A stretch of 59,213 nucleotides of DNA from Spirochaetia bacterium (lineage in GTDB: Bacteria; Spirochaetota; Spirochaetia; B11-G9). The DNA lies in contig JAQIBN010000082.1 of assembly GCA_027859095.1 (NCBI GenBank), forward strand, positions 1 through 59,213, written 5' to 3'. A model generated the notes under the pieces. It was not told the DNA's origin. It made no database searches and saw nothing but the letters and a program-made list of their open reading frames with translations. Positions 11,719 to 46,064 of the stretch are shown piece by piece; position 1 is the stretch's first letter, and each line of letters begins with the position of its first letter. Position numbers and translations under genes: made by a program.

Positions 11719-12870
11719 ATGGATAAATTTACAATTTCACCAGTACCTGAACTTATTTTTGGTAGGGGTACAATTAAAGAATTACCTCCTATTATTGCTA
11801 AAATGGGTTTTTTAAATATTGCAGTTATAACAGGTGGAAAATCATTTGTAAATTCGATTTATTGGCAGTTCCTCTCTGATTCCTTTTCTGCAAATGGCCT
11901 TAAAGTATACCATTTTATATCTATAGGAGAGACAACTCCGGAAACAGTAGATGGAATTGTACAGAATCTCCTTGAAAGAAATATTGATGTTGTATTAGCA
12001 ATTGGTGGCGGGACTGTCATGGACACAGGAAAAGCTGTATCTGCAATGCTATGTATGTCTGGTTCTATTATTGATTATCTTGAGGGTGTTGGTACAAAAG
12101 AACCCACAGGAAAACGAAAACCTTTAATATGTGTACCTACCACTTCAGGGACAGGTTCTGAAGCCACAAAAAATGCTGTAATAACTAAAATTGGAAATAA
12201 TGGTTTTAAAAAATCACTACGCCATAAGGCTTATATCCCTGATACGGTTATTATTGATCCGGATTTAATAATGAGTTGTCCAATTCCTCTTACCATTGCT
12301 TCAGGTATGGACGCTGTAACTCAATTACTGGAATCATATGTTTCTATTAAATCTAATCCATTTACAGATCAACTTGCTTTAAATGGTCTTAAACTGGCAG
12401 GAAGTAGTTTGTCCCGGCTTGTTAATAATCCTGAAGACATGGATGCCAGAGTAAAAATGGCTTATGCAGCATATTTATCTGGAATAACTCTTGCAAATGC
12501 TGGTCTTGGGGTTGTACATGGAGCAGCTTCAGTTTTGGGCTCAATGAGATCTATTCCTCACGGTGTTGTATGCGGAACATTACTTGGATCAGCTACGGAA
12601 ATGATAATCGCAAAATTGAACAAACATAAAAATCCACTTAATGACGCAAGTCTTATCAAATATTCAGAAGCAGGTATTGCGTTAACTGGAAGTAATAATC
12701 TAATTGAGACTCTTAATAATTGGGTAAATGACTATAAAGTTTCAAGATTATCAGAATATGGTTTCACAGAAATGGAACTTGTTTCTGCATCAAAATTAAC
12801 AGGATTAAAAAATACACCTTTCCAGCTAGATAAAAAAGATATTTTTTCTATATTATTTTCAAGGTTGTGA
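11719..12870 (+). CDS. Iron-containing alcohol dehydrogenase family protein
   Basis: Fe-ADH motifs GGGTVMDTGKA, PTTSGTGSE and GVVHGAA. The ATG at 11719 is preferred over the GTG at 11704. Confidence 0.85.
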   Translation: MDKFTISPVPELIFGRGTIKELPPIIAKMGFLNIAVITGGKSFVNSIYWQFLSDSFSANGLKVYHFISIGETTPETVDGIVQNLLERNIDVVLAIGGGTVMDTGKAVSAMLCMSGSIIDYLEGVGTKEPTGKRKPLICVPTTSGTGSEATKNAVITKIGNNGFKKSLRHKAYIPDTVIIDPDLIMSCPIPLTIASGMDAVTQLLESYVSIKSNPFTDQLALNGLKLAGSSLSRLVNNPEDMDARVKMAYAAYLSGITLANAGLGVVHGAASVLGSMRSIPHGVVCGTLLGSATEMIIAKLNKHKNPLNDASLIKYSEAGIALTGSNNLIETLNNWVNDYKVSRLSEYGFTEMELVSASKLTGLKNTPFQLDKKDIFSILFSRL

Positions 12871-12979
12871 AAACTTAGAAAACTACTATATATAAATATA
12901 TTGATTTTTTATGTTAGTTAAGTTAACATACTATTCACATTGCGTTTATAAGATTAAAGAGAAATGGTGGAGAAGCTGA

Positions 12980-13732
12980 TTGCAACATAAAAATCATTTA
13001 ATACACTATTTATTAGCTTTGCTTACAATAATTCTGATTCCGGTCATGCAATCCTGCAGTCTAAAACAAGTTCTCAATATAGATAGTAGAGGATCAGGAA
13101 ATGTGAATTTTGAACTGACTCTTGCACCATTCTTTGTCGAAGTCACAGAGCAGTTATCAGCGCTTTTTCCCGAAGAAGGGGAAATCCCTGAAGAAGGGCA
13201 AAAACTATTTGATCTTGAAAAAATTAACGAAGACTTTTCTAAAGGAACAGGTACCATCTTAGAGAATTTGGAATCACCTTCGAATAATATTCTAAAGGGA
13301 AACTTGATTTTCGATAATATATCAACTGCATTAAATGGAGCCGGCACAAATAATATTTTAGATATTTTTAGTTTTACGACTGTAAATAATATACATACTT
13401 TATCTGTTGTCTTTAATTATAAAACTGTAGAGAAATTTTTGACAGCAAATCCTTCATTTAATTCACCTTTAATGGAGAACTTTGGTCCTCTTGCAAATAG
13501 AGGACTTAGTGATGAAGATTTTCTTGAAATGATGCAATTTGCTCTTGGTGACGAGAGCCGTTTAGGAATTAAGGGATCATTTTTATTTATGGATGTTAAT
13601 GTTAAAGGTAAAATAGTTGATCAAATTGGTGGAATTGTAGTTGATCAGGATACTGTCAGATTCCAGATACCACTGTTAAGAATTCTTTTATTGGATGAAC
13701 CTGAATCTTTCTCTGTACGTTTTAGTGACTAA
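12980..13732 (+). CDS. Hypothetical lipoprotein
   Basis: 250 aa. TTG start preceded by GGTGGAG. Signal peptide ending in VMQSC (a loose lipobox). No recognisable domain. Confidence 0.45.
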   Translation: MQHKNHLIHYLLALLTIILIPVMQSCSLKQVLNIDSRGSGNVNFELTLAPFFVEVTEQLSALFPEEGEIPEEGQKLFDLEKINEDFSKGTGTILENLESPSNNILKGNLIFDNISTALNGAGTNNILDIFSFTTVNNIHTLSVVFNYKTVEKFLTANPSFNSPLMENFGPLANRGLSDEDFLEMMQFALGDESRLGIKGSFLFMDVNVKGKIVDQIGGIVVDQDTVRFQIPLLRILLLDEPESFSVRFSD

Positions 13733-30760: not shown

Positions 30761-31041
30761 TTAGTCAAATTCAAACTTCGCGCCCTTACAATCCATGACA
30801 GGTTGCATTAGATTTGTTTTATTATAAAAAATAAAATGACTTCCCTGGGGGAATTGTCTGTAGCCTTCTTTGATATAATGCATGCTTTTTCTGTAAAAGG
30901 ATTGTTGGCAAGTAAATGAAATACATCATCAAACTGTTTTATATAGAAATTTCTTTGACTCTTATCCCAACGTTGCTCAGTAAAGACAGCAAATTGAACC
31001 AGGTCGTTTTTTGCTTTATTAGTTAATTTAAATATTTTCAT
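30761..31041 (-). pseudogene. parE: ParE-family toxin gene inactivated by a 1-nt frameshift
   Basis: Frame 1 gives MKIFKLTNKAKNDL...LLANNPFTEKAC. The hallmark C-terminus HYIKEGYRQFPQGSHFIFYNK continues in another frame from about 30880 and stops at 30761. Confidence 0.7.
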
Positions 31042-31187
31042 TGTTGACTTGTATTATCTAACTCAGAAATAAATGTTTCATAGTTGTAATCAGATAAACC
31101 ACTATTTTCTTCTTCAATCAGCATCGTTCTTAATGTCTCAGTTTTGTCTCGTTGATAACAGAAAAGACAAATACGCTTGAGATCCAT
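31038..31187 (-). pseudogene. parD: 5'-truncated ParD-family antitoxin remnant
   Basis: Only the C-terminal half is recognisable (ETLRTMLIEEENSGLSDYNYETFISELD). Its stop overlaps the parE ATG (ATGA). The N-terminal RHH part is missing where the PEGA fragment begins. Confidence 0.5.
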
Positions 31188-31189
31188 CT

Positions 31190-32454
31190 TAAGGAAACCT
31201 ATGGGAATCTGCTTATTAAATCTACTTTTAAAGATATAGATGTGTACCTTGATGGGTATTTTATTGGAAAACTGGGATCAGGGGTTTTTTCAGATATTAC
31301 TGTTGGTGAGCATGTCATAACCCTGGAGGGCAATGACTACCGATGGGAGGGTTCTGCTTCTATTATTGCAAATAAAAGTTTGACTTTAGCGGTTGAACCA
31401 AAAGCCTATAGTGTTTTTAGGTATAATATTCAGGATGGTGCAACAGCTGTATTATTGAATACATTATGGTCAATAGATACTCATTCCGGAAATGGCGAGA
31501 TCAATCTATGGGCAGGTGATTATACTATAAAAGTTTTTGGAGATAATCTTGAAGTTCAGGATTTTTCAATCTCAATAAATAGAGCAGATAAATATAATTT
31601 TGCTCCAAGACTGGAGTTGAACAGAGAGTTTATTTATTCAGGTTTATTAGAGGAGTTAAACCTTTATACAGAACTAAATAATAAGGAGAGCATCGTTACT
31701 ACAAATAATATTCATAACCTTCAGATGTTCAAAATGATATTCAAAATTCCAGATTCCAGTTTGATGAGCTGTTAAGAGATGTTAGCAGTCTGCTTACAGA
31801 GTTAATTGTAAAGAAAGACAGCCATGATGAGATTGAACGTCTTGAAAAGGTTAAGCAGGATACTATTGCTCGACTTAAAGTGATCCAGGATCGTAGGAAA
31901 GTGACCTAAAATTCTCTCGATACTAAACAATCTTCCAAGATTATGAGAAATAAAAATATGCTCGGATGGAGTTTGGCTGGAACCAGTCTTGTAAGTGCCA
32001 GCCTTTACGGATTATTCACCTACCTTAGTAATGACTCCTATAATAGCTATTCATCGACAACAATCACATCAGATGCAATAAGTTACAGGGAAGAATTTCA
32101 AACTTATGATATACTTAGTTATGTATCTCTTGGAACTTCACTACTTAGTGCAGGAGTTTCAGTGTATTGATTGGTCCTGGTGCCGGGGAAGTTATAACAG
32201 GCAGAACACAAACTCTTAGTGTGTATAAGTTCAATACTGATATTGTAAACAGATACTGGATTCAGATTCCTACCGATGGTAGTGACTTTGATAATACTAT
32301 TATTTTTACAAAAGATGATTATAGTACAAATGAATGCATTGTTGCTGAGGGTACTTTGCCTAATAATACTACATATTATTGGAGAGCAAAGGCTTTTGAT
32401 GGGATTAAATGGAGTAATGCCTGGAGTTTAATCCCTATATGTCAAGATAGATGA
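31190..32454 (+). pseudogene. 5'- and 3'-truncated, frameshifted fragment of a PEGA/FN3-like surface protein gene (paralog of 43257-44710)
   Basis: PEGA segment (LLIKSTFKDIDVYLDGYFIG...VGEHVITLEGNDYRWEGS). The reading frame switches near 31720-31780 and again near 31940 and 32167. The FN3-like segment (TTYYWRAKAFDGIKWSNAWS) ends at the IS remnant. Confidence 0.6.
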
Positions 32455-32715
32455 CAGTAAAACATTTAGAAAGGAGTCATCTATTTATGAAATACAGCAC
32501 CGGGTTTCGGAACAATGTAATAAAGAAAGTATTGCCGCCTGAAAACAAATCAATTGCAGAAGTTAGTAAAGAAACAGGAGTAAGTGACCGGACAATAAGG
32601 AACTGGTTATTCAAATTAAAAATGATAATCTTAGTCCACAGGAAGGGGAAGTATCCCCGGAACAAAGGAGTCCTTCAGAAAAGATGTCACTAATATTTGA
32701 GAGCAGATCCCTTTC
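32452..32715 (+). mobile_element. IS-element remnant (transposase orfA-like HTH, frameshifted and truncated)
   Basis: Begins TGACAGTAAAAC. The ORF MKYSTGFRNNVIKKVLPPENKSIAEVSKETGVSDRTIRNW is a transposase-type HTH. A frame switch follows KLK, and the remnant is cut off near 32715. Ends are approximate. Confidence 0.5.
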
Positions 32716-33100
32716 CTCTTTTGGTTTTCTCCATCTCTTTGATCCATAAGAATACTTGAGCTCCTCCTGATATATTTTTATCTTTTGCACCAGAAGTTCA
32801 TTTTCAAGAACTCTATTAGATGTAGGAGTAATTAGCCTTTGAGAAAATGGCCAAGGCTTTTTTTAAGATATCACGCTCCTCTTTGGTATCTGCTAACTCT
32901 CGTTTCAATTTAAATAATTCTTCATCTCGCCGGATTCCTAGTGACTCGGCTACTGCAGTAATTGTTTTCTCTGGATGACTTAATAAATACTGCACCGATT
33001 CTTCTTTCATTTCATTACTGTAAGTTCTTCGTTTTCCCATATTATCCCAATTTTATCTGGGGCTTAACCTCTTGTCTATTATATCAGGGGAATACCACAT
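32716..33100 (-). mobile_element. IS3-family remnant (shortened orfA plus the first approx 25 codons of orfB)
   Basis: orfA is MGKRRTYSNEMKEESVQYLL...ERDILKKALAIFSK (leucine-zipper end typical of IS3 OrfA, with the middle part missing). It is followed by an orfB-like ...IYQEELKYSYGSKR segment and then truncation. The outer end reads TGTGGTATT on the minus strand. Ends are approximate. Confidence 0.55.
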
Positions 33101-33196
33101 CCAGCGCAAGGTTCTTGATACAATGTTACAATAAAAAGTTACTGTTGTTTCCATTGATTTGTAGTGATAGACTATACTTGTTATGTGGAGTTATTA

Positions 33197-33472
33197 ATGG
33201 ATTTTGAATGGAATATACAGAAGGCTGAGAATAATATAAAAAAACACGATATTTCATTTGAAGAGGCTTCAACTGTATTTGGAGATGTTTTGTCAACCAC
33301 GTTTTTAGATCCTGAACATTCTATTCATGAAGGTCGTTATTTAGTGGTAGGTTTTTCTGACAAGTACAAAGTTCTGGTTGTTTCTCACACCTTTCGTAAT
33401 GAAAACATCCGTATTATAAGTGCACGACAAGCAACTTTCAAGGAGAAGAGATTTTATGAACATGGAAAATAG
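33197..33472 (+). CDS. brnT: BrnT-family ribonuclease toxin
   Basis: MDFEWNIQKAENNIKKHDISFEEASTVFGD...RIISARQATFKEKRFYE matches the BrnT (DUF497) pattern. Confidence 0.8.
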   Translation: MDFEWNIQKAENNIKKHDISFEEASTVFGDVLSTTFLDPEHSIHEGRYLVVGFSDKYKVLVVSHTFRNENIRIISARQATFKEKRFYEHGK

Positions 33473-33683
33473 TAATGAAGTGAATGATGACCTTCAAGAT
33501 GAATATGATTTTTCCAATATGGCAGGTGGAGTCCGTGGAAAATATGCTAAAGACTATCAAAAGGGTGTTAAACTTATTCAACTTGAACCTGATGTAGCAA
33601 AGATGTTTCCCGATACAAAATCGGTCAATGAGGCCTTGAGAGCTCTATCAAAAATTATTCAGCAACACAATAAGACTGCTTAA
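33456..33683 (+). CDS. brnA: BrnA-like antitoxin
   Basis: 75 aa, overlapping the brnT 3' end by 17 nt. The C-terminus IQLEPDVAKMFPDTKSVNEALRAL resembles the BrnA antitoxin tail. Confidence 0.7.
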   Translation: MNMENSNEVNDDLQDEYDFSNMAGGVRGKYAKDYQKGVKLIQLEPDVAKMFPDTKSVNEALRALSKIIQQHNKTA

Positions 33684-33902: not shown

Positions 33903-34760
33903 TTAAACCATAGTATCTTCTTCATTAATGGTTCCAGCCTTCTCTTTAAGATACTTGCTGAAGGAAATTTTGGGAACAGAGATAGCAGGTTTTGCTTTAA
34001 TAGTGATCTCCTCACCCGTTTCAGGATGCCGGATAATTCTTGCTTTCTGTGCCTCTTTTCGTTTTAATGAGAGTCGGCCGATCCTGCCCAGTGGAACACT
34101 CTCCCCCAGCATCATTCCTGTTTCAATCAGTAGACTATAGTCATCAAGAATTTCTTTAGCCAGTGCTGCTGTAATATTATATCTTTTTGCAATATACCTG
34201 GTCATGGATTTAGAAGTGAATTGTTCAGGTACACTTGATTTATCAATATGGATACTTCTATTAATCTTCATGAATCCGTTGGTCAGAAATATTGTACCCT
34301 CTCTGATACGTTCTTTTTGTTTTTCGATATCAATAGAACTATCACATACGGCAAGCATATATGCTGCTGATGTCTGTTTAAGTTGGCCTGTTGTGAATCT
34401 GACAGCTTCACCGATATGAATATCATCTGAAAGTTCTGTTGCAACAATCGAAATCGTTTTTGGTACATCAGTTCTTAAATGTATACTGGCATACTCAACT
34501 TCTCTAGCTTTTTCTTTTGGTCCTATGCTGACTATAGAACCTGAATAGGTCATTACAATCATTCCACGGAGATCATCTGCTTCAATTCCATTTATAATTT
34601 CCATGTTTAAAAGATTGGCCTGCTGTTTAAAGAGGCTGCTTTTTCTTTCCCATGTATCTGCCATCAGATTACGGGAATCGGTATTATCAGGTAATTCCGA
34701 TGATTCTAGTATCGATTGAATATGTATTTGTATTCTTACGGGTAATTCATTGAATGTCAT
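33903..34760 (-). CDS. Fusion of an unassigned approx 175-aa N-terminal domain to a C-terminal HU/IHF-type DNA-binding domain
   Basis: Residues from about 195 to 280 align along their length with HU (..LAKEILDDY...VPLGRIGRLSLKRKEAQKARIIRHPETGEEITIKAKPAISVPKISFSKYLKEKA). The N-domain is paralogous to ORF 34920-35450. Confidence 0.75.
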   Translation of the reverse strand: MTFNELPVRIQIHIQSILESSELPDNTDSRNLMADTWERKSSLFKQQANLLNMEIINGIEADDLRGMIVMTYSGSIVSIGPKEKAREVEYASIHLRTDVPKTISIVATELSDDIHIGEAVRFTTGQLKQTSAAYMLAVCDSSIDIEKQKERIREGTIFLTNGFMKINRSIHIDKSSVPEQFTSKSMTRYIAKRYNITAALAKEILDDYSLLIETGMMLGESVPLGRIGRLSLKRKEAQKARIIRHPETGEEITIKAKPAISVPKISFSKYLKEKAGTINEEDTMV

Positions 34761-34919
34761 TACTTGACTCCTATATTAATTTTCTAGTAATAGCTTTCAT
34801 AATATTTACATTATAAGTATAACACTATTATTTTCAAAAAGTACCGAAAATAATGGTTTTTTATGGAAAACTGTTTTATATTGGTATTTGTTATATAAAA
34901 TACTTACGGAGGTATTGAA

Positions 34920-35450
34920 ATGGATGAATATTTTTCAGAAGTATCAGAAGAGGTGCAAAATCACTTGAAACAGCTTGTTGGTTCTGTAAATTTGCCTTCA
35001 GGAGCTGATGCTCTTGAAGTTTTGGCAAAAGCCTGGCTTGAGAAAGAAAAGGTTTTTATGTCTCAGATAAGAGAGCGGAATTTAGAAGAGGCAGATGAGT
35101 TTTCTGTAGAAGAACCAAGGGGCGCATTGTTAATGACCTATTCCGGTTCGCTTCTGACATTAGGACCTATAAGCGAAGACGGACGAAAAGTTGAATATGC
35201 GAGTGTTGGTCTACGATCCGATGTTCCTGATAGTGCTGAAAAAGATGGATCAGTTCTTAGTTCCGATGTATCTGTGGGCGGATCGGCTGAATTCCTACTT
35301 GGCCCAATTAAAAAGAGCTCACCAGTTTATAAAATTGCGGTAGTTCGGGAAGAGATGCCACTGGAAGAGGAAGAAGAATTTCTTTCTGAAGTTACACAGA
35401 TAATGGCTGATGATTTTGTAGAAATCAACAAGACTTTGATAATAGAGTAA
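34920..35450 (+). CDS. Stand-alone paralog of the unassigned domain found in the HU fusion
   Basis: 176 aa. Shared blocks are LLMTYSGSLLTLGP / IVMTYSGSIVSIGP, KVEYASVGLRSDVP / EVEYASIHLRTDVP, plus a C-terminal helix. Its stop lies 1 nt before the phosphatase ATG. Confidence 0.65.
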   Translation: MDEYFSEVSEEVQNHLKQLVGSVNLPSGADALEVLAKAWLEKEKVFMSQIRERNLEEADEFSVEEPRGALLMTYSGSLLTLGPISEDGRKVEYASVGLRSDVPDSAEKDGSVLSSDVSVGGSAEFLLGPIKKSSPVYKIAVVREEMPLEEEEEFLSEVTQIMADDFVEINKTLIIE

Positions 35451-35451
35451 T

Positions 35452-36462
35452 ATGTATATTAAAAGTCCTCTCCGACGAATAACTGGTATTTTGGATAGGA
35501 ATAGTGTTCCCGATTCCAGGGATCTTGAAAAATCTCTGGAACAGGTTCTTTTTACTTTAAATTCGGAAGAACCGGACATCCGCCCAAAAGCCAGTGATGG
35601 AAATCCAGGAGGTCTTATTCTTCTTAATTCTCTTCCAACCATAATAGTACCTGATCTCCATGCACGGATGGGATATTTAAGAGCTCTTCTTTCATGGATT
35701 CCTCCTGATGCAAACTTTACAGTATATCAGGGTCTCTTATTGGGAAAACTACAGATTGTTTGTGTGGGCGATGGATTTCATTCAGAAGCCAGGGGCATCC
35801 CTCGTTGGAAGACAGCTTTCAAAGAGTTTTCTTCTGATTATAAAAAGCACAAGTCTATGGATGAGGAGATGCTGGAGAGTCTTGGGGTTATGATGATTGT
35901 CATGGAACTAAAAGCTGCATTCCCGGAAAATTTTCACTTTTTAAAGGGGAATCATGAGAATGTTGCCAATGAAGAATCAGCAGACAACAGACCTTTTAGA
36001 AAATTTGTTTATGAAGGTGCCATGGTAACATCATGGTTCCATAAATTTATGAACGAAGAAACTTATAGGAAGTACTATATGTTTGAAAAAAAACTTCCTG
36101 TATTCGCTGTAGGTGATCGATTTTGTGTTACTCATGCAGAACCTAGAAAGCATTATAAAAAGAATGAATTGATAGATGCTATGATCCACCGGGAAGTTGT
36201 ATTTGACTTAACATGGACGGCTAATGATGAAGCGGAAGAAAACAGTGTAATAAAATACCTTGAGGAATACTTTCCAGGGGATAATCAGTCTTTGATGTTT
36301 GGCGGTCATCGGCCTGTACCGAAGTTTTATAAGACAAGAGCTTTTGGTCGGTATCTTCAGATTCACAACCCGGACCAATACATTGCAGTATATATGAATA
36401 ATATCCTTGAGTTTTCAACAGAGAAAAATATTCTAATTCTGCCTAAAAAAGGGGAGGCTTAA
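35452..36462 (+). CDS. Calcineurin/PPP-like metallophosphoesterase (putative Ser/Thr phosphatase) with an atypical first motif
   Basis: 336 aa. Has IIVPDLHAR in place of GDxHG, VCVGDGFHSE in place of GDxxDRG, an intact LKGNHEN, and later VTHAEP and GGHRP. Confidence 0.65.
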   Translation: MYIKSPLRRITGILDRNSVPDSRDLEKSLEQVLFTLNSEEPDIRPKASDGNPGGLILLNSLPTIIVPDLHARMGYLRALLSWIPPDANFTVYQGLLLGKLQIVCVGDGFHSEARGIPRWKTAFKEFSSDYKKHKSMDEEMLESLGVMMIVMELKAAFPENFHFLKGNHENVANEESADNRPFRKFVYEGAMVTSWFHKFMNEETYRKYYMFEKKLPVFAVGDRFCVTHAEPRKHYKKNELIDAMIHREVVFDLTWTANDEAEENSVIKYLEEYFPGDNQSLMFGGHRPVPKFYKTRAFGRYLQIHNPDQYIAVYMNNILEFSTEKNILILPKKGEA

Positions 36463-36467
36463 AGAGT

Positions 36468-38081
36468 ATGGCAAAATTACCTGAAAGTATTGGTAAGTAC
36501 AAGGTTGAAGCTCTAATAGCTCAGGGGGGTATGGGTGCAGTATATAAGGCAATTCATCCAACTTTAAATCGCCCTGTAATAATCAAAAAACTAACCCTTC
36601 GTGGACGAAAAGATATTACAGAACGCTTTAAGCGGGAAGCAAGAATACTGATGAATTTTAGACATGAAGGTGTAGTAAATATGTACGATCACTTTAAACT
36701 GGGGTTGTCATACTACTTAGTTCTTGAGTTTGTCGATGGAGCTGCTCTGGACAGTATTATAAAGAAGCAGCGCTACCTTGATAATGGTGTTGTTGCCTAT
36801 ATTCTCTATCATGCAGCTCAATCCCTACATTATGCCCATGAAAAGAAGGTTGTACATAGGGATATCAAACCAGCGAACCTGCTTCTTTCTAAAAAAGGGG
36901 AGATTAAACTTGTCGATTTCGGGATCGCAGTTTCTGATGAAGATTCTGAAGAAGGTCTTACCCGGGATGGAATGACCCTGGGGACACCCAGTTATATGGC
37001 TCCGGAACAGTTCAGCAATACAAAAAATGTTGACCTACGGGCAGATGTGTATTCGTTAGGTGTCCTGGTATATGAAATGCTTACAGGTAAGAAACCATTT
37101 CCAGGTGGATTTAGTCCTGAACTTGTTGTTAAGATACAGAAAGGGAAATATCCCAATCCAGGGAAATTTAATCCCCACATACATCCTGTGCTTAAGCATT
37201 TTATCAGGAAATCAATGAAACCAAAGCTTGATCGCCGATACAGGAATTTAATACCGGTCATAAAGGAACTGGAACATTTTCTAAAGGGATATGACAAAGC
37301 AGAGCTTTCCAGTATTGTTGCCGATTTGGCTGCTGGAAAGGAGCCTGCAAAGCCTGTTTATAGAAGACAAGGTCGTTTTTTCCTAAAAATAATAGTACCA
37401 GTTGTAGTTGGCATAATAATGTCTCTGATAGGGTCATTCTGTTATTTTACAGGGTATTATAATGAAATTTTTCATAGTAAAAGTTTTGGTGCAATTGTTT
37501 TTTCAGCCAAAATCCCGGGAGCCACACAACCCTGGAATAAGGTATTTATTAATGCTGAAATCTTTCAGGATGATGATAATTTAATACCGGAAGTATGGAA
37601 TAAAAAGATTATTTTTAGAAAAATACAGAGTGACGTTGAAGAAGGAATTTACATTTTTCGATCTTTTCCTGTTTTCCTTCCTAAAGGAGCATATCGTGCA
37701 AAGGTTGAAATTGAAGATGAACTTCACTGGCATTCATTTATTGTATTGCCAGAAGGTATTCAGAAATTTGATCCATTTATATCAAATGCAATGGTGGTTT
37801 CTTCGGGGCGAAAAACTGAGACTTCGTCTCCACTTTCTTTTAAGATTGAAGTCAGTGATATCCTTACAGGAAATGATATTAAGAATGAGACGGAAATTTC
37901 GATTAGCCGGAATGGAATTTGGGTAGAACTTACAGATTTTGAGAACCTGCTGACTGGAAAGGTCTACAAATTCCGCTTACAGCATGAAAACTACCAAAGT
38001 AAAATATTTTCTCTCAGAATCAAAGATGATCAGAATATACTAAGGATAAAAGCAGGGCTTGTACCTCATCCTGGAAGCTGA
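36468..38081 (+). CDS. Hanks-type Ser/Thr protein kinase with one TM helix and a beta-rich (PEGA-like) C-terminal ectodomain
   Basis: 537 aa. Contains GGMGAVYKA, VIIKKL, HRDIKPANLL, DFG and SYMAPE. The TM helix is FFLKIIVPVVVGIIMSLIGSFCYF. The approx 210-aa C-terminal domain has PEGA-like strands. Confidence 0.9.
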   Translation: MAKLPESIGKYKVEALIAQGGMGAVYKAIHPTLNRPVIIKKLTLRGRKDITERFKREARILMNFRHEGVVNMYDHFKLGLSYYLVLEFVDGAALDSIIKKQRYLDNGVVAYILYHAAQSLHYAHEKKVVHRDIKPANLLLSKKGEIKLVDFGIAVSDEDSEEGLTRDGMTLGTPSYMAPEQFSNTKNVDLRADVYSLGVLVYEMLTGKKPFPGGFSPELVVKIQKGKYPNPGKFNPHIHPVLKHFIRKSMKPKLDRRYRNLIPVIKELEHFLKGYDKAELSSIVADLAAGKEPAKPVYRRQGRFFLKIIVPVVVGIIMSLIGSFCYFTGYYNEIFHSKSFGAIVFSAKIPGATQPWNKVFINAEIFQDDDNLIPEVWNKKIIFRKIQSDVEEGIYIFRSFPVFLPKGAYRAKVEIEDELHWHSFIVLPEGIQKFDPFISNAMVVSSGRKTETSSPLSFKIEVSDILTGNDIKNETEISISRNGIWVELTDFENLLTGKVYKFRLQHENYQSKIFSLRIKDDQNILRIKAGLVPHPGS

Positions 38082-38114
38082 GAAAAATAACTAACAATAA
38101 TATAAGGAGATAAT

Positions 38115-38999
38115 ATGACAGCGTTCTTAAGGAAGATATTTATGACTCTGATAGGATTACTAGCCGGGACAGCATCCTGGGCAGTTATTGAAATCCTTTT
38201 TTATTATGGTGAATCAATAGGCTCTCACATTTTATGGAATAGTCTGGCCGGTGCAGCTATGGGATTCTTATTCGGTCTTTTCTTTGGTAGTGCCGAGGGA
38301 ATAATGTTATCAGACCTAAAACGTTCCATCCGTGGCGGTCTTACGGGTGCAGTTTTTGGATTGGTAGCGGGGGTTGTTGTTGTAATCCTGGCTCAGGGAT
38401 TATTGTATGGAATTGGAAATGCTGAACTATTTGCAGCTTCAGTCAGCGATTCACTGCTTACTCCTTTATCAAGAGCACTGGGATGGAGTCTTCTCGGTCT
38501 GGTTATTGGTTCTATTGATGGTATCAGATCTAACTCTTCCAGAAGGATGGGGATTGGTATATCTGGAGGCTTTCTTGGAGGATTGGCAGGGGGATTACTT
38601 CTGGAATTTCTTACGGTGTATTGGGCAAATGGTTTTTTTGCTAGGGGTATAGGTCTTGCTGTAATGGGGATTGGCATTGGTTTGTTTTACACTCTTTTCG
38701 AATCATACCGTTCTTTCGGTCTTCTTCGTGTCCTTACAGGAGCATTACGAGGAAAGGATTATGTTATTGTCATGAAAAAGACCAGGATCGGTTTGGCTTC
38801 TAAAATGAATATTCCTTTAAGTGGTTATTCTGCTGTATTAGCTGAGCATGCGATGTTAGTTGCCAAAAGCAATACTGTTTTTATTCAGGAATCTGAAGGT
38901 TCAGTTCTGGTAAATGATCAGCCTATAATTAAACATGAGCTGAAGTATGAGGATGTTATACAGATAGGTGAAGCAAAGCTTTTATATTTACCTAAATAA
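38115..38999 (+). CDS. Polytopic glycine-zipper membrane protein with a C-terminal FHA-like domain
   Basis: 294 aa. About 6 Gly-rich TM segments. The C-terminus TRIGLASKMNIPLSG...AEHAMLV...VLVNDQPI...YEDVIQIGEAKLLY has an FHA-like layout, but the canonical Ser is replaced. Confidence 0.6.
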   Translation: MTAFLRKIFMTLIGLLAGTASWAVIEILFYYGESIGSHILWNSLAGAAMGFLFGLFFGSAEGIMLSDLKRSIRGGLTGAVFGLVAGVVVVILAQGLLYGIGNAELFAASVSDSLLTPLSRALGWSLLGLVIGSIDGIRSNSSRRMGIGISGGFLGGLAGGLLLEFLTVYWANGFFARGIGLAVMGIGIGLFYTLFESYRSFGLLRVLTGALRGKDYVIVMKKTRIGLASKMNIPLSGYSAVLAEHAMLVAKSNTVFIQESEGSVLVNDQPIIKHELKYEDVIQIGEAKLLYLPK

Positions 39000-39019
39000 G
39001 AATAATTGGAGGATTAAGA

Positions 39020-40402
39020 ATGAAAAATAGAAAATTATTAACTCTTATTGCATTTGGGATGCTTATCTTTCCTGGCTTTATCTGGTCACAAAACATTACG
39101 ATTACACAGATTGATTCAGCTGAACTTCTGCCATTCTCCCGTATTGACTGCTACTTGAGTATAAGCAATGATCAGGGGGAAGTTGTTAACGATGCTGATC
39201 CTGCATATATCAGTATAAAACATGAAACATCAGAAGGAATGCAGGATGCTACTATTCTGGATGTTCAGAGAAATGACTCAGCTAATGGAACGATAACATT
39301 TTTGTTAATCCTGGATAATTCGGGGAGCATGTATGAAGCTGTTGGAGACGGAGCTGAAGGTCATCGGATGAATCATGCTGTTCGGGCTGTAGAAGAGTTT
39401 CTAAACAGAATGGACAATCCTGACGCAAGGGTAGGTTTGGCTGTATTTAACACCCGGTATACATTACTGTCAGAACCGGTGAAGGATTTCAGGATTATAC
39501 AAGAAGCCCTTAAAAATATTTCAGAACCTGACAACGAAGAGGCTTACACCGAACTGTTTTATTCAATCAATATGGCAGCCCTGGATATGGCTCCTTATAG
39601 GGGGAGGAAGGCGATAATTCTATTATCTGATGGAGAGAACTATCCGTACTTTTCAATGTCAGGAAAGTCACATCCCGATATTGGTGACATTCTTTATCAT
39701 CCAGAAAATGCACTTGATTCATTAAAGCGGGAAAGTGTAACTCTATATGGTATTAACTTCTCCCCAGACAAGGATCAGTCATTATCATCCATCAGTATTG
39801 GATCAGGAGGGAAAATTTATGATGCTCTAACTGATAGTCAACTGTCAAGCATCTACAATAAAATTAGAGATAGAATTGAAAGTGAATATAAAATTACGGT
39901 TAGAGCACCCCTGGGTTTTCTAGGGTCACCGGATATATTGGCTAAATATAATAACATCACTGATACCCGAACTTATCATAGCAGCTCACTCATGGGATTA
40001 CCTGGAAATAGTAATTTGTTACTGCTACTACTTATTTTGTTAGGATCCTTTATTCTCTGGTTTGTGCTGTTAATAATTCGTTTTGAAAAACCAGCAAGTA
40101 CAGCTGAGCTCTCCATGTTGCCTTATGGCAGAGGGAAACCCATTCAGAGAACCATTCCACTTACTTCAAACAGAACAGTTATAGGTGGATCTGCCCAGGC
40201 GGATTTTACTATTGCAGGGATACCTAATTTAAAGGAATCACATGCTACAATTGTTCAGAATGAAAAAGAGGGTACATATACTGTTGTTTCGGATGAAGAT
40301 ATTTTGGTAAACAACCAAATAACAAAGAAGCGTAAACTTAAACCTGGAGATGTAATTAATGTAGAGGGTGCAACAATCGTTTTTGATGCTCCGGAGGGAT
40401 AA
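39020..40402 (+). CDS. Signal peptide - vWA (MIDAS) ectodomain - TM - cytoplasmic FHA domain protein
   Basis: 460 aa. MIDAS motif LILDNSGSM and downstream ILLSDGEN. The TM helix is LLLLLLILLGSFILWFVLLII. The C-terminal FHA-like region is RTVIGGSAQADFTI...ESHATIV...ILVNNQ...LKPGDVINVEGATIVF. Confidence 0.8.
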   Translation: MKNRKLLTLIAFGMLIFPGFIWSQNITITQIDSAELLPFSRIDCYLSISNDQGEVVNDADPAYISIKHETSEGMQDATILDVQRNDSANGTITFLLILDNSGSMYEAVGDGAEGHRMNHAVRAVEEFLNRMDNPDARVGLAVFNTRYTLLSEPVKDFRIIQEALKNISEPDNEEAYTELFYSINMAALDMAPYRGRKAIILLSDGENYPYFSMSGKSHPDIGDILYHPENALDSLKRESVTLYGINFSPDKDQSLSSISIGSGGKIYDALTDSQLSSIYNKIRDRIESEYKITVRAPLGFLGSPDILAKYNNITDTRTYHSSSLMGLPGNSNLLLLLLILLGSFILWFVLLIIRFEKPASTAELSMLPYGRGKPIQRTIPLTSNRTVIGGSAQADFTIAGIPNLKESHATIVQNEKEGTYTVVSDEDILVNNQITKKRKLKPGDVINVEGATIVFDAPEG

Positions 40403-40515: not shown

Positions 40516-40851
40516 ATGAATATTCAGATAATTGGAACAAAAAAAAGTAATAATACAAAAAAAGCAATCCGTTTTTTTCAAGAACGAAATATTAAATTCC
40601 ATTTTATGGATCTAAATGAGAGAAAGATTTCTGAAGGTGAACTTTCAAATATATTAAATAGAATAAAGGCTGAGGATTTAATCGATACTGAAAGTGCTGT
40701 ATATAAAAAACGTGGCTTTGCCTATATGGAATATGATCCGGTGGAAGAGCTTTTAGAGGATAACAACCTGATGCGAACTCCAGTTGTTAGAAATGGGAAA
40801 GAAGTTACAGTAGGAAATGCAATTGAGGTTTGGAAACAGTGGCTGGAATAA
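40516..40851 (+). CDS. ArsC/Spx/YffB-fold family protein lacking the N-terminal redox cysteines
   Basis: 111 aa, collinear with YffB/Spx (..IRFFQERNIKFHFMDL..., LMRTPVV..G). The usual C..C position reads KKSNNTKKA. Confidence 0.65.
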   Translation: MNIQIIGTKKSNNTKKAIRFFQERNIKFHFMDLNERKISEGELSNILNRIKAEDLIDTESAVYKKRGFAYMEYDPVEELLEDNNLMRTPVVRNGKEVTVGNAIEVWKQWLE

Positions 40852-43256: not shown

Positions 43257-44710
43257 AGTATAGTACAAATAGCTTTTCTTCTAACTTTTATAATTATCCT
43301 ATCCACTTATGCAGACCAATTTAAACCCCGCATTGCAGTAATGCCTTTTAATCCTATTGGAGTTTCTAAAAATGATGCACTGGTTGTTACTGGTCTCTTT
43401 GAGACGGGTCTGGTAAAGACTGATAGCTTTAATGTAATTGAACAGAAGCAGGTTAATGAAATACTGGCTGCCCAGGCTTTTACTCTAACAGGTTGTACTG
43501 ATGATGCCTGTGCTATTGAATTTGGAAAACTCCTGGCAGCAGAACAGATTATTCTTGGTGATCTTTCTACTATAGGCGGTAAATATATTCTTAATGTTAA
43601 AATAATAGATGTTGAACTGGGCAAAAATATTAAAGCAGATAGCGTCGAAACATCCAAATTATCAGAGATGACAGCTGCAGCTGAGCTTCTTGCTTTCAAA
43701 CTTGCCAGTCTTACATATTCAGAAGGGAAAAATGTACAGATTGCCAATGCTTTTCGGGATGTTTTTATAGAAACTGATCCAACTGGTGCAGATATTTATA
43801 TAAATGGAGTAAGGAAGGGTGTAAGCCCGGGGCTTTTTGAGAAGGTTCCTTTAGGTAATATTACTGTTGGGGAGCATAGCATTGCCCTCGAGGGTAATGG
43901 TTACCGATGGGAAGGTTCTGAATCTATTACTGCTAATTGGGGTTAATGGAGAATTATCAAGCTCATCTGGTTTGATCCAAAAGCTAACTCAAAATGGCGA
44001 TCTGGTACTTTCTGTTGGTGACTATACTGTAAAACTTTCCGGTGATAATTATGAAACTGAAGAAGTATCTATTGCTATACAAAAGGGTGAAAATTCTTTT
44101 TTAAATTCTGTACTGAAGCATGACCGGGAGTTTGTACTTAAAGGTTTTACAGAGTCCATCAGGTATTACTCTGAGCTTATCAGTGGTTCCGCCCCTGTTA
44201 CGACGGAGAATATTAAAGGCTTACTGGATTTACAGAAAGAACACAAACTCTTAGTGTATTTAACTTCAATCCTGAACTTGTTGGCAGATACTGGATTCAG
44301 ATTGCTATAGATGGTAGTGACTTTGATAATACTATTGTTTTTACAAAAGATGATTATAGTACAAATGATTGTATTATTCCTGCTGGAACTTTGCCCAATA
44401 GTTCTACATATTACTGGAACTATTCTTGTGGATGATAACTCTATTATAATTCCAGAATATCCAATTATAACGCCATTGCTAAACAGCAACACCTATTTTT
44501 GGCGTGTGAAGATTAAAAATGATGATAATATATGGGGTGATTGGAGTAGTATTTGGAGTTTCTCTATTGAAATTTATTTTACCGAACACATAATCACCAA
44601 CACTTTTGATAATGCCAGTGATGTTTATACTTTTGATGTTGATAAAGATGGAGATATGGATATTTTAGGAACTGCTAGAGATGCTGGCGATATAGTATGG
44701 TGGGAGAATT
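43257..44710 (+). pseudogene. Multi-frameshift pseudogene of a CsgG/LpoB-like + PEGA + FN3-like + FG-GAP surface protein
   Basis: A signal-peptide-like stretch (IAFLLTFIIILSTYADQFKPRIAVMPF) has no ATG, GTG or TTG ahead of it. Frame changes occur near 43935, 44230 and 44420. FN3-like segments are STYYWN and NTYFWRVKIKNDDNIWGDWSSIWSF. The FG-GAP repeat (DVDKDGDMDILGTARDAGDIVWWEN) is cut at about 44710. Confidence 0.65.
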
Positions 44711-44730
44711 CATTACAATTATATACAGCA

Positions 44731-45180
44731 ATGATGGAGGAGATTAAAAAGCGATTAGCAGTAGTAGTGTCTTTTATGAAAGGCTCCCAAACTACTGGAT
44801 TTTTAATAACAGATGTTGAGTTTGTTTGTCTTCACTTTCGTAAAGTTCTTGAGCATATAGCCCTATCTTCTCTGATTGCTAACAAAGAAGAGTACACAAA
44901 ACAATATAAAAATTTTAAAAGACATTGGAATGCTAGAAGAATCCTTGAGGGTATTGAAAAAATCAACTCTGAATATTATCCTCAACCTACAGTTTAGATT
45001 ATTGATCCTCATACTCAGAAAGTTAAGGAAACTGTAAAAACAGAGAATGATTATTTATTAAAGAAAGATTTTATAGATATATATGATAAATGTTGCAAAG
45101 TCCTTCATACGAGTAATCCATATGGTATTGTTGTGGAGATAAAAACAATACAGGCATACCACTCAGCATGGAGCAATTGA
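44731..45180 (+). pseudogene. Hypothetical gene remnant interrupted by an in-frame TAG (44995-44997)
   Basis: MMEEIKKRLAVVV...INSEYYPQPTV-TAG-IIDPHTQKVKETVK...LHTSNPYG reads through in one frame. No domain recognised. Confidence 0.35.
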
Positions 45181-45330
45181 AGGTAAAACACAGATAAAAG
45201 AAGTGAAATACTATAACCTGGACGCCATTATTTCTGTCGGTTACCGGGTGAAATCACAACAGGGCACACAATTCCGGAAATGGGCTACCTAGCGTCTTAA
45301 GGAAAATAATTGGGGAAGGAGGAATAAATA
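45179..45330 (+). pseudogene. RhuM-family protein fragment with an in-frame TAG
   Basis: KYYNLDAIISVGYRVKSQQGTQFRKWAT-TAG-RLKEN matches the conserved RhuM core (YNLD.II.VGYRV.S..GTQFR.WAT..LKEY). Only about 45 codons remain. Confidence 0.55.
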
Positions 45331-45381
45331 AAAAAATCCGAAAACAGGGGACAGAGGAATAAAAAATCGCTTCGAGGTTAT

Positions 45382-45627
45382 TTACAAAGCGATTGCATAT
45401 GGACGAACATTGAAGATTTCATTTGAAGTTAATGGTTCAATTACTGACTTTGGAACCGTTAATACAGCAACAAAATCTCCAAGGGAATTGAATACTTCCA
45501 AAGAATAACCTTCTTCTCCTATAGATACAGGATGGTGTTCAACAATAGTTGCAACATCACCTCTTTTTAATCCTTTTTCAGGAATATCTTTGGCTAAGGA
45601 AACTTCTTCAAATAATTTATATGTCAT
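45382..45627 (-). CDS. DUF4926 family protein (putative antitoxin-like partner)
   Basis: 81 aa. FEEVSLAKDIPEKGLKRGDVATIVEHH...GYSLEVFN matches the DUF4926 pattern. Separated by 1 nt from the upstream DUF6883-like gene. Confidence 0.7.
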   Translation of the reverse strand: MTYKLFEEVSLAKDIPEKGLKRGDVATIVEHHPVSIGEEGYSLEVFNSLGDFVAVLTVPKSVIEPLTSNEIFNVRPYAIAL

Positions 45628-45628
45628 G

Positions 45629-45961
45629 TTATTGCTCCTTTTTATCAGGATACATTGTTATAAACTTTGTGTTTCCTGTTTCAGATTCTATCAACCAAAT
45701 AGTACAAATTGCAATACTATTATTGTTTGGCCCTAATAGATTACCTCTTATCTCATAGAGTTGACCATATGGTGTATCTTCAATATAACTGGCATCATTT
45801 CGTAATATTTGCTTTTTTAAATCATTTTCTAATATTTTCCAATTACCAGCTTTGTATCCGGCTTTTGCTAACCATTGGGATTTATCATTTCGCTTTTTAA
45901 AAACTAACAAATATTTTGTAAACTTCTCCTTCGGAATAATTACTTTATCAGTAAGTTTCAT
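45629..45961 (-). CDS. DUF6883-like protein (putative toxin-like partner of DUF4926)
   Basis: Approx 110 aa counted from MKLTDKVIIPKEKFTKYLL... The pattern KF..YLL...DKS..L.AGY is typical of the small proteins usually paired with DUF4926. The longest ORF extends to 46018. Confidence 0.55.
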   Translation of the reverse strand: MKLTDKVIIPKEKFTKYLLVFKKRNDKSQWLAKAGYKAGNWKILENDLKKQILRNDASYIEDTPYGQLYEIRGNLLGPNNNSIAICTIWLIESETGNTKFITMYPDKKEQ

Positions 45962-46064
45962 TATTAAATTATGAAAGATTATTTTAGAATTTGCAAGGCA
46001 AAATCTACCATTCCACAAAAATGGCTTTAACAGATATCAAAAAAATGGGATGGAGTTGCCTGAC

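Follow-up and report, generated by a model that had tools for sequence, protein, structure and literature searches.

A Spirochaetota signalling module joining a Hanks kinase, a PP1-like phosphatase and membrane FHA-fold proteins to an HU fusion: a candidate envelope-to-nucleoid phospho-switch

What brings a DNA-bending protein of the HU/IHF type together with a receptor kinase, a phosphatase and two membrane proteins in six closely spaced genes of a spirochaete? The question is raised by positions 33903-40402 of a 59,213-nt stretch of Spirochaetia bacterium DNA (contig JAQIBN010000082.1 of assembly GCA_027859095.1; the window, in what follows), in which a preliminary description, made from the letters alone, had proposed an undescribed module. 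All six open reading frames (ORFs) lie where that description put them. The firm part of the answer is that these genes are one conserved, chromosomally inherited Spirochaetota signalling module. The tentative part concerns what the module does: it is proposed to be an envelope-to-nucleoid Ser/Thr phospho-switch in which one domain, encoded twice in the locus, is the pivot and the HU fusion is the DNA-binding output, a proposal that we judge nearly as probable as its negation.

The domain in question, of about 175 residues and alpha/beta in structure, is called dom here as a working name; it occurs free, as a 176-aa protein, and fused to HU. The HU-fusion gene (33903..34760, minus strand, 285 aa) encodes an N-terminal dom copy (residues 1-175, nt 34236..34760), recognized by its paralogy to the 176-aa protein, and a C-terminal HU/IHF domain. 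A divergent intergenic region (34761..34919), 159 nt long and AT-rich as first described (22% GC), separates it from a plus-strand operon whose first gene encodes the free-standing dom protein (34920..35450). There follow, with gaps of 1, 5, 33 and 20 nt, genes for a PP1-like PPP-family Ser/Thr phosphatase (35452..36462, 336 aa, starting 1 nt past the dom stop codon), a receptor-type Hanks Ser/Thr kinase (36468..38081, 537 aa), a polytopic Gly-rich membrane protein with an FHA fold (TM-FHA, TM standing for transmembrane; 38115..38999, 294 aa), and a protein made of a signal peptide, a periplasmic vWA domain, a TM segment and a cytoplasmic FHA fold (vWA-FHA; 39020..40402, 460 aa). Databases call the proteins of the module only 'HU family DNA-binding protein', 'metallophosphoesterase' or 'hypothetical', and an NCBIfam scan of the window's proteins adds nothing specific to the Pfam calls.

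Conservation of the module

Relatives of dom were sought in one genome per species with a query built from 11 sequences (an alignment of 28 has no block conserved enough for the purpose), and at least 136 species-level genomes encode them. The taxonomically named carriers are Spirochaetota without exception: Spirochaetaceae, Sediminispirochaeta, Alkalispirochaeta, Treponema, Treponemataceae, Breznakiella, Leptonemataceae and Leptospirales. When the six window proteins are searched against 82 fetched loci (every count being out of the loci long enough to test), the phosphatase gene is collinear with dom in 79 of 81, the kinase gene in 67 of 68, the TM-FHA gene in 61 of 63 and the vWA-FHA gene in 56 of 57, and this collinearity persists at dom identities as low as 41%. 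The order of the five operon genes is stable, with identity declining stepwise from the closest relatives to distant spirochaete lineages; the genes that flank the module vary from locus to locus, and clustering of all flanking ORFs of 83 loci yields no further widely conserved neighbour.

That six unrelated genes should merely happen to be adjacent is a notion refuted by this synteny, and we give it practically no credence. The adjacency is more than chance because the identical gene order recurs in dozens of divergent genomes; amid unrelated flanking genes, it is kept in 56-79 of the 57-81 loci that allow the comparison, drawn from all the spirochaete lineages sampled. Homologs of the two dom paralogs lie, almost without exception, with kinase, PPP, FHA and vWA genes, the opposite of what the preliminary description had named as the sign of a fortuitous grouping.

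The dom domain and its phosphatase and kinase

That the 176-aa protein is a stand-alone paralog of the N-terminal region of the HU fusion, as had been suggested, is borne out by 33% identity over 172 residues (E 2e-31). A dom profile run against 1.84 billion representative proteins retrieves 201 clusters only; family members are, with one exception, about 176 aa (free) or 280-305 aa (HU fusion) long, and the family occurs essentially only free, fused to HU, or in one fusion to vWA. The judgement that the domain belongs to no known family also holds up: Pfam, its ligand-binding families included, matches none of 28 members scanned, NCBIfam has no match for dom, and the AlphaFold2 (AF2) model of the free protein (predicted local distance difference test, pLDDT, 89.9; predicted template modelling score, pTM, 0.86) retrieves nothing significant with Foldseek from the PDB (best E 0.11, template modelling score, TM-score, <0.25) or from the viral structures of BFVD (best E 0.047, TM-score 0.23). 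Two candidate kinships were rejected: a match to the proteasome beta subunit (PDB profile, E 0.0064) is unsupported by Foldseek and is ascribed to chance, and a cryptic FHA fold receives an hhalign probability of 0.05%.

The modelled topology (a pair of helices at the N-terminus, eight strands, and one long helix at the C-terminus) suggests one alternative to a phospho-switch: the sheet could grip the long helix and dom could be a small-molecule sensor, exerting allosteric control over the phosphatase when free and over DNA binding when fused to HU. Its loops contain many invariant Ser, Thr, Arg and Gly residues, a possible ligand or anion pocket, and several of the non-significant Foldseek matches are PYR/PYL helix-grip receptors, which regulate PP2C phosphatases. 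These matches are nevertheless at noise level (E 0.15-0.6, TM-score 0.16-0.25, rmsd 15-18 Å), none of the 28 members scanned matches a Pfam ligand-binding family, and a sensor function gives no reason for dom to be so strictly co-conserved with a kinase and the two membrane FHA proteins. We hold a sensor of this sort to be very improbable; the helix-grip fold itself, at a TM-score of ~0.2, is rejected as an assignment and survives only as part of this low-weight alternative.

Conservation singles out two candidate sites in dom. The residues invariant in 83 free dom proteins are T73, S75, G76, S77, R89, Y93, S95, R99, P103, G128, P129, S134, F166, N170, K171 and T172. The loop Y93-x-S95-I-G-L-R99-x-D-V-P103 (35196..35228, plus strand), in which D101 and V102 are each kept in 81 of the 83 orthologs, is a candidate site coupled to phosphatase and kinase; the C-terminal N170-K171-T172 (NKT; 35427..35435, plus strand), invariant in 83/83, is a second candidate site of phosphorylation or docking. 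The HU-fused copies (64 recovered orthologs, on which the HU-fusion alignments rest) keep the T.SGS hairpin and the loop, the latter as EYaSIxLRxDVP, with Y, S, R, V and P in 64/64 and D in 62/64; at their C-terminal N167-[RQK]-[T/S], Thr or Ser is found in 52/64. The loop sits in a lower-pLDDT segment of the model, pLDDT drops to 65 at the C-terminus, and both motifs are probably exposed in an otherwise rigid structure.

The two forms of dom are old. In a neighbour-joining tree the HU-fused copies (64/64) and the free copies (83/83) form pure, reciprocally monophyletic clades, and the identity of fused to free dom within one genome is not above the cross-genome mean, which indicates a single ancient duplication with both copies retained. 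Because the two lineages are ancient and reciprocally monophyletic, the two dom types should have distinct retained functions. As the only component present in two ancient paralog lineages, dom would be the pivot of the module; the 'decoy-like' role first ascribed to the free paralog is conjecture still.

The gene beside free dom encodes a protein that Pfam recognizes weakly (Metallophos, E 1e-4). Its AF2 model (pLDDT 93, pTM 0.92) retrieves with Foldseek, in the top 50, almost exclusively PP1/PPZ1/Glc7 together with one PP2A catalytic subunit (E 2e-12 to 5e-11, probability 1.0, TM-score 0.6-0.7). The motifs are PDLHAR (D and H kept, Gly residues replaced), GDGFHSE, LKGNHEN, THAEP and GGHR; D68, H70, D107, N167, H168, H228 and H286 are invariant in 41 sequences, and the metal ligands of D-x-H, GD, GNHE, H and GGH are invariant across 41-78 orthologs. 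By predicted fold and by motifs, then, the 336-aa protein is a genuine PP1-like PPP-type Ser/Thr phosphatase. Its original placement in the calcineurin-like family and the GNHEN motif stand, whereas the supposed degeneracy of the first metal motif does not, the D-x-H ligands being invariant in orthologs.

The kinase is catalytically complete and has a TM helix, as had been recognized. Its Pkinase domain (Pfam, E 5e-51; nt 36498-37238) has the motifs GGMG, VIIKKL with the catalytic Lys, HRDIKPAN, DFG and SYMAPE conserved in 64 orthologs, together with a Thr-rich activation loop, LT..G.TLGTP, and a hydropathy scan finds a single TM segment at residues 304-322 (nt 37377-37433). Judged by invariant motifs, and by the modelled fold of the PPP, both enzymes look active. 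The extracytoplasmic domain of the kinase (nt 37434-38078, plus strand) is beta-rich, variable and poorly conserved among orthologs. The earlier label 'PEGA-like' does not fit it: ten orthologous kinase ectodomains match no Pfam family, PEGA (PF08308) being absent at E up to 1, the window protein has no PEGA match either, and the same Pfam library does detect true PEGA fragments in the window's flanks.

Dom and the phosphatase are also found in other company. One locus (L050; loci of relatives are cited by such numbers) has dom, PPP and kinase only, the membrane FHA genes, the vWA gene and the HU fusion being absent within 10 kb; its kinase (12114-13298, 394 aa) is soluble, with no TM segment, and its C-terminus is a Lys/Ala/Pro-rich tail, 42% Lys over the final 90 residues, resembling that of histone H1 or HupB. 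A sister system, dom2-PPP2-DUF3276, is found in three independent contigs (L088:7001-8990, L091:7001-8961 and L092:237-2226), followed by SMC in two of them (L088 and L092); dom2 and PPP2 overlap stop to start in two loci and are 1 nt apart in the third, none of the three has a kinase, FHA or vWA gene, and dom2 retains Y.S...R..[VI]P. The DUF3276 protein matches PDB entries 3NM7 and 3N8B, which are the PUR-domain protein Bpur/BpuR of Borrelia burgdorferi, a DNA/RNA-binding regulator (PMC3764826, PMC2954813, PMC6736767). A chemotaxis connection is regarded as incidental: dom2-PPP2 directly follows a flaA-cheA-cheW/R-cheX-cheY operon only in L088, the upstream genes of L091 differ, and the L092 contig ends just upstream.

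In a third arrangement dom has moved into the vWA protein. P0153 (701 aa; L083/L084/L085:8001-10106; on 8 contigs) is an orthologous signal peptide-vWA-TM protein (E 7e-41) in which a full-length dom (hhalign probability 99.5%) and a helical C-terminal extension of ~125 aa replace the FHA fold. Its gene comes directly after a TM-FHA gene (41% identity, E 3e-55) in a locus with neither kinase nor PPP; its dom keeps the T.SGS hairpin, GP..S and F...N and has lost the Y.S.G.R.DVP loop and NKT. The architecture suggests that dom can be placed at a vWA/TM-FHA membrane complex. A HAMP-guanylate cyclase gene and a 7TMR-DISM-SpoIIE (PP2C) gene lie near that of P0153. Orphan free dom genes, with no cluster partners on the contig, also exist (L033:6690-7220, L089:5543-6058, L090:2174-2689), one between a recJ-like gene and proS and two directly after fpg, the gene for formamidopyrimidine DNA glycosylase.

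Across these variants each of the three dom subfamilies with a PPP partner (free, HU-fused and dom2) retains the Y.S...R..[VI]P loop, which is lost only in the PPP-less, kinase-less vWA-TM-dom fusion, and NKT is absent from the kinase-less variants (that fusion and dom2). Dom and PPP are thus the minimal conserved pair and the evolutionary core, with the loop motif tracking the presence of PPP. The chief rival to a phospho-switch takes its departure here: dom may be a regulatory or targeting subunit of the PP1-like phosphatase instead of its substrate, with free dom and PPP making up a holoenzyme, the HU-fused copy tethering the phosphatase to the nucleoid and the kinase opposing it on other substrates. 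Eukaryotic PP1 is controlled by regulatory subunits, which attach to it by short motifs, and the module's enzyme has the PP1 fold; dom-PPP adjacency in 79/81 loci, the 1-nt gap in the window, the stop-start overlap in several loci and in the sister system, the persistence of dom-PPP pairs without any adjacent kinase, and the loss of the loop exactly where PPP is absent all fit such a partnership. What it leaves aside is that the kinase is co-conserved almost as strictly (67/68), that the loop Ser, and in the free copy the terminal Thr, are invariant as expected of acceptor sites, and that the vWA-TM-dom fusion shows a PPP-independent role of dom. That dom is such a subunit and not a substrate is, in our estimation, unlikely.

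Membrane proteins, DNA-binding output and a proposed switch

The two membrane proteins are constructed as had been described. A hydropathy scan gives the Gly-rich 294-aa protein five or six hydrophobic segments; its cytoplasmic C-terminus (nt 38727-38981) has Yop-YscD_cpl as its best Pfam match, with FHA also found, and an ortholog profile confirms the fold by matching GarA (E 6.5e-10). In the 460-aa protein, a signal peptide and a TM segment at residues 335-353 (nt 40022-40078; hydropathy scan) bracket a vWA domain (VWA_2, E 6e-12; nt 39302-39856) with a complete metal-ion-dependent adhesion site (MIDAS), its DNSGS, the Thr of yTEly and the Asp of L.DGe being conserved in 58 orthologs. The FHA-like C-terminus (nt 40148-40387) is sub-threshold in Pfam, and its ortholog profile matches the FHA domain of Mycobacterium tuberculosis FhaA (E 6e-7), GG standing in place of GR and the S of SRRH being missing. 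Single-sequence PDB searches with the two FHA regions found no FHA domain; the ortholog profiles did.

Canonical FHA domains contact phosphothreonine through the Arg of G-R and the Ser of S-x-x-H. Both folds of the module keep the structural Gly, His and Asn, and the alignments with GarA and FhaA confirm the register. In TM-FHA, however, G226 is followed by Ser in 31 and by Arg in only 3 of 53 orthologs (Ser or Ala standing in place of the canonical Arg), and three positions ahead of H245 there is Ala in 26 and Ser in 4; in vWA-FHA, G389 is followed by Gly, Ala or Ser, with Arg in 1 of 58 orthologs, and the third residue before H408 is Lys, among others, and not the canonical Ser. Neither fold, by its sequence, is likely to read phosphothreonine in the usual way. 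They resemble YscD-type FHA folds, which have no such contacts and play a scaffolding part in secretion machines. With the phosphothreonine contacts gone from the FHA folds of both membrane proteins, a simple kinase-FHA phosphothreonine logic needs revising.

Some relatives do have a canonical phosphothreonine reader beside the cluster, encoded by a facultative seventh gene: an FHA protein of ~112 aa (GR, SRKH, NG) whose N-terminus bears a GarA/OdhI-like Thr motif, DET[IV]. This gene is found at about 18 of 82 loci, its position relative to the cluster varying (L003:9387-9725, L004:11741-12079, L005:7558-7893, L071:2237-2569 and L067:5197-5529; also in L024, L079, L074, L041, L082, L058, L044 and L061), and is the sole recurrent neighbour. 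The window lacks it: only 113 nt lie between the vWA-FHA stop (40402) and the next gene (40516), the site that it occupies in L003. In one divergent genome a canonical FHA domain is fused to a GerE/LuxR-type helix-turn-helix (HTH) domain just upstream of the cluster (L002:6216-6803, minus strand), and the HU-fusion gene of that genome's locus runs in the same direction as the operon.

The C-terminal HU/IHF fold claimed for the 285-aa protein is confirmed by Pfam PF00216 at residues 182-274 (33939..34217, minus strand; E 2e-12) and by its beta-arm, RHPETGEEITIKAKP; the arm residues K-a-R....p.TGe.....akp, the intercalating beta-arm Pro included, are conserved in the 64 orthologs. By these marks it is a bona fide HU/IHF domain, predicted to dimerize and to bend DNA. 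Its gene is divergently upstream of the operon in 55 of 74 loci, downstream of it in 4 and co-directional in 1. A nucleic-acid-binding partner in fact recurs in three forms, namely the HU fusion, the PUR/BpuR-like protein and the histone-like kinase tail; with the HU fusion, the dom2-PPP2-PUR/BpuR(-SMC) sister system and that tail, the envelope-to-nucleoid option of the preliminary description gains support.

The intergenic region contains a block of ~50 nt, TTTTCAAAAAGTACCGAAAATAATGGTTTTTTATGGAAAACTGTTTTATATT (34831..34882), that is nearly invariant among nine relatives, the surrounding spacer having diverged. A TGG-N7/8-TGGAAA core recurs in 20 of 82 upstream regions, Breznakiella being among the carriers, and L051 has a one-base variant. 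The best promoter-like match in the region is a sigma-70-like candidate on the minus strand (34810..34837), TTGAAA-16-TATAAT, an 11/12 match to consensus that would drive the HU-fusion gene and whose -35 hexamer lies inside the conserved TTTTCAAAAA element. The conserved block is likely a back-to-back promoter/operator region and a good candidate operator; sigma-54, sigma-28 and extracytoplasmic-function (ECF) sigma readings, tried by eye, fail on spacing and bases, and Rfam matches no family anywhere in the window. Two further conserved elements are seen upstream of dom, each in a subgroup of the relatives' loci: a GCAGCTGC palindrome ~25-35 nt downstream of the TGGAAAA element (L017, L028, L029, L039, L040, L051, L064 and L066; the window is without it), and another upstream element, CTGGAATTCC...GTGCAATG, in place of the TGGAAAA block (L014, L020, L026, L035, L037, L070 and L075).

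The phospho-switch that we propose would work as follows. Dom would act as a phospho-switch and docking domain: the kinase would add, and the PPP remove, a phosphate on the YxSIGLRxDVP loop and possibly also on the C-terminal NKT, and the phosphorylation state of dom would set whether it is held at the membrane by the FHA-fold domains or released. Envelope or periplasmic signals could thereby change the amount of HU fusion available to bend DNA and so alter transcription or nucleoid structure, while free dom would compete with the HU fusion for shared partners. The phosphorylation of dom, its binding by the FHA folds, membrane sequestration, the direction of regulation and the DNA targets are what we infer. 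A more general form of the idea, possible but doubtful, makes dom a hitherto unrecognized phospho-switch ('receiver-like') domain that serves Hanks-kinase/PPP pairs as a partner-switch widespread in spirochaetes, gating the HU fusion and PUR/BpuR-type regulators alike, with the FHA folds as its docking platform; if true, it would be a Ser/Thr counterpart of the receiver and DNA-binding-domain logic of two-component response regulators.

Several findings weigh against the proposed switch. Since neither membrane FHA fold has the phosphothreonine-contacting Arg and Ser, a contact between FHA and dom would have to be phospho-independent or non-canonical, a real obstacle to any simple model of phosphothreonine docking. 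In 14 of 74 loci the stretch fetched has no HU fusion within 10 kb. Dom-PPP pairs occur without an adjacent kinase, which suits dom as a phosphatase subunit no less than as a substrate. Dom's invariant Ser and Thr could be purely structural or ligand-binding, and the spacer has no good consensus match for a plus-strand promoter of the operon.

The missing HU fusions also give some purchase to the idea that the module acts in reality on the envelope (on growth of the cell wall, say, on periplasmic flagella, or on secretion or assembly), the HU fusion being only a local autoregulator or accessory partner; its parallels would then be the actinobacterial FhaA/FhaB-PstP-PknAB cluster, threonine phosphorylation in type VI secretion, or the archaeal Arn network. 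Three of the six proteins are membrane-located, with periplasmic or polytopic parts; the complete, conserved MIDAS is as expected for a periplasmic protein ligand; the best Pfam match of TM-FHA is Yop-YscD_cpl, and YscD-type FHA folds are secretion scaffolds; and the Arn system, with its FHA and vWA proteins, Hanks kinases and PP2A, controls a motility organelle (PMC7472852). An output at the envelope seems to us improbable all the same: no envelope, division, flagellar or secretion gene is conserved beside the cluster, where the small FHA gene is the only recurrent neighbour, the che/flaA neighbourhood of L088 is not repeated in L091, and the nucleic-acid-binding partner recurs in three independent forms.

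Genomic setting and comparison with known systems

The surroundings of the locus in the window had led the preliminary description to entertain a conflict or defence role. Upstream (30808-33683) are a fragment of a ParE toxin, two IS3-type transposase HTH fragments and a BrnT toxin that looks intact and is overlapped by a putative BrnA; downstream (43307-46018) is a DUF4926/DUF6883 gene pair, and PEGA-gene fragments also occur in the flanks. The debris is real enough, but it is not the native context of the cluster. In L006 asnS is directly beside the HU-fusion gene, and in L003 the cluster is followed in unbroken synteny by a small ArsC-like gene, a metallo-beta-lactamase (MBL)-fold gene, DAHP synthase, DJ-1 and ackA. 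Because the cluster of close relatives sits directly among housekeeping genes, the toxin-antitoxin (TA) and insertion-sequence (IS) patches are insertions specific to the window's lineage.

Further features of the flanks may be recorded. The gene after the module (40516-40851; 111 aa) is ArsC/Spx-like by eye, but Pfam has nothing for it at E 1e-5; the closest relatives have it in synteny with the cluster, and it overlaps the beginning of the MBL-fold gene that follows. Diverged direct repeats ~12 kb apart bracket the cluster region (31294-31373 against 43858-43937, 83%; 32197-32383 against 44232-44418, 86%). The repeats belong to two fragmented copies of a PEGA/CsgG-like lipoprotein gene, each apparently broken into several ORFs.

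A sensor of threats, such as phage or an epibiont at the cell surface, comparable to the vWA-MoxR ternary systems or to the actinobacterial Esr pathway, is a very unlikely function. Proteins with vWA, Ser/Thr kinase, phosphatase and FHA domains do occur together in threat-sensing pathways (PMC7159879, PMC13622651), the kinase ectodomain is highly variable, and the window locus lies between TA/IS remnants. PADLOC, on the other hand, finds only generic kinase-domain models (PD-T4-6, mad6) and none for the other five proteins; plasmid and phage searches give no dom homolog; the cluster and its recurrent flanks are without MoxR AAA+, nucleoside triphosphatase (NTPase), beta-propeller or toxin/effector genes; the five-gene order is stable, with identity falling in step with relatedness across spirochaete lineages; and asnS, DAHP synthase and ackA are the company it keeps in close relatives.

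The combination of Hanks kinase, phosphatase, FHA and vWA is of an already known kind, with examples in the type VI secretion system (T6SS) pathway, the mycobacterial cluster, Arn, Deinococcus and Esr. In the T6SS pathway of PpkA, PppA and Fha1, a membrane Hanks kinase with a periplasmic vWA acts together with a counteracting phosphatase and an FHA protein, and a periplasmic signal is converted into cytoplasmic assembly; it differs in having the vWA within the kinase, a PP2C phosphatase, a canonical phosphothreonine-binding Fha1 and adjacent T6SS genes. As previously remarked, neither T6SS nor cell-division genes are nearby here: T6SS genes are found neither among the window's neighbours nor in the clustered flanks of 83 loci, and no division gene is conserved beside the cluster. 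The actinobacterial FhaA/FhaB-PstP-PknA/PknB cluster is akin to the module in that mycobacterial GarA and FhaA are the best matches of the module's FHA folds and that FhaB is also membrane-anchored, and EmbR is an FHA-containing DNA-binding regulator under Hanks-kinase control. That cluster has the PP2C phosphatase PstP, PASTA kinases, linkage to rodA and pbpA and canonical phosphothreonine pockets, and no vWA, dom or HU; Pfam finds no PASTA or PP2C domain in the module, the clustered flanks hold no rodA or pbpA, and the NCBIfam PknB_PASTA model matches the kinase domain only, below its cutoff.

A likeness of operation, and of operation only, is offered by the partner-switching modules (RsbV/SpoIIAA, RsbW/SpoIIAB, RsbU/SpoIIE), in which a small protein with an invariant Ser is encoded beside its kinase and phosphatase and phosphorylation picks its partner. 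Their components are otherwise different (STAS against dom, a GHKL against a Hanks kinase, PP2C against PPP), and their output is a sigma factor.

All four kinds of part recur in the archaellum regulatory network (Arn) of Sulfolobus, which shares an FHA protein (ArnA), a vWA protein (ArnB), Hanks kinases (ArnC, ArnD) and a phosphatase, PP2A, that is of the PPP family and not PP2C. Phosphorylation there controls the assembly state of the FHA-vWA complex and, through it, gene expression (PMC7472852). The Arn proteins are nevertheless soluble and archaeal, ArnA has a zinc finger, and there is no dom, HU fusion or membrane anchoring; ArnA (PDB 5a8i) scores insignificantly against the FHA profile (E 0.67). 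In Deinococcus radiodurans, DRA0331-DRA0334 form one operon of vWA, Ser/Thr protein kinase (STPK), FHA and PP2C-KI-FHA genes under push-pull regulation (bioRxiv 10.64898/2026.01.23.701218), with PP2C instead of PPP, canonical FHA domains, and neither dom, nor an HU fusion, nor membrane FHA proteins. In the vWA-MoxR ternary systems and Esr, vWA and a kinase/phosphatase pair signal to an FHA output that is sometimes nucleic-acid-binding (PMC7159879, PMC13622651); the MoxR AAA+, beta-propeller sensor and effector domains that define them are absent here, and the module is a stable chromosomal one and not a variable island.

On the side of the output, the dom fusion is not among the HU fusions in the main text of Burroughs et al. 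2017, where kinase, FHA, phosphatase and vWA go unmentioned. Phosphorylation of mycobacterial HupB by Ser/Thr kinases reduces its DNA binding (PMC4754617); the regulatory sites predicted here would lie in the fused dom and not, as in STPK-phosphorylated HupB, in HU. The opinion that the module is undescribed can be maintained for the literature searched, including the main text of the HU/IHF survey and the vWA conflict-system survey as far as these were covered.

Bacterial Hanks-kinase signalling is usually without a dedicated, co-encoded output of the response-regulator type, and the module is one candidate for such an output. If the proposal is true, dom would be a new signalling domain on a route by which envelope signals reach the chromosome's nucleoid, in a phylum with little-understood gene regulation, with a possible link to the biology of BpuR as studied in Borrelia, and the membrane proteins would show clearly that FHA folds can be put to new use once their phosphothreonine contacts are gone. 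Carriers in culture include Breznakiella homolactica RmG30, Marispirochaeta aestuarii and Salinispira pacifica. From all of the systems compared, the module is set apart by its use of a PPP phosphatase in bacteria, by two FHA folds that are both membrane-anchored and without phosphothreonine contacts, by its centring on dom, and by the fusion of dom to HU.

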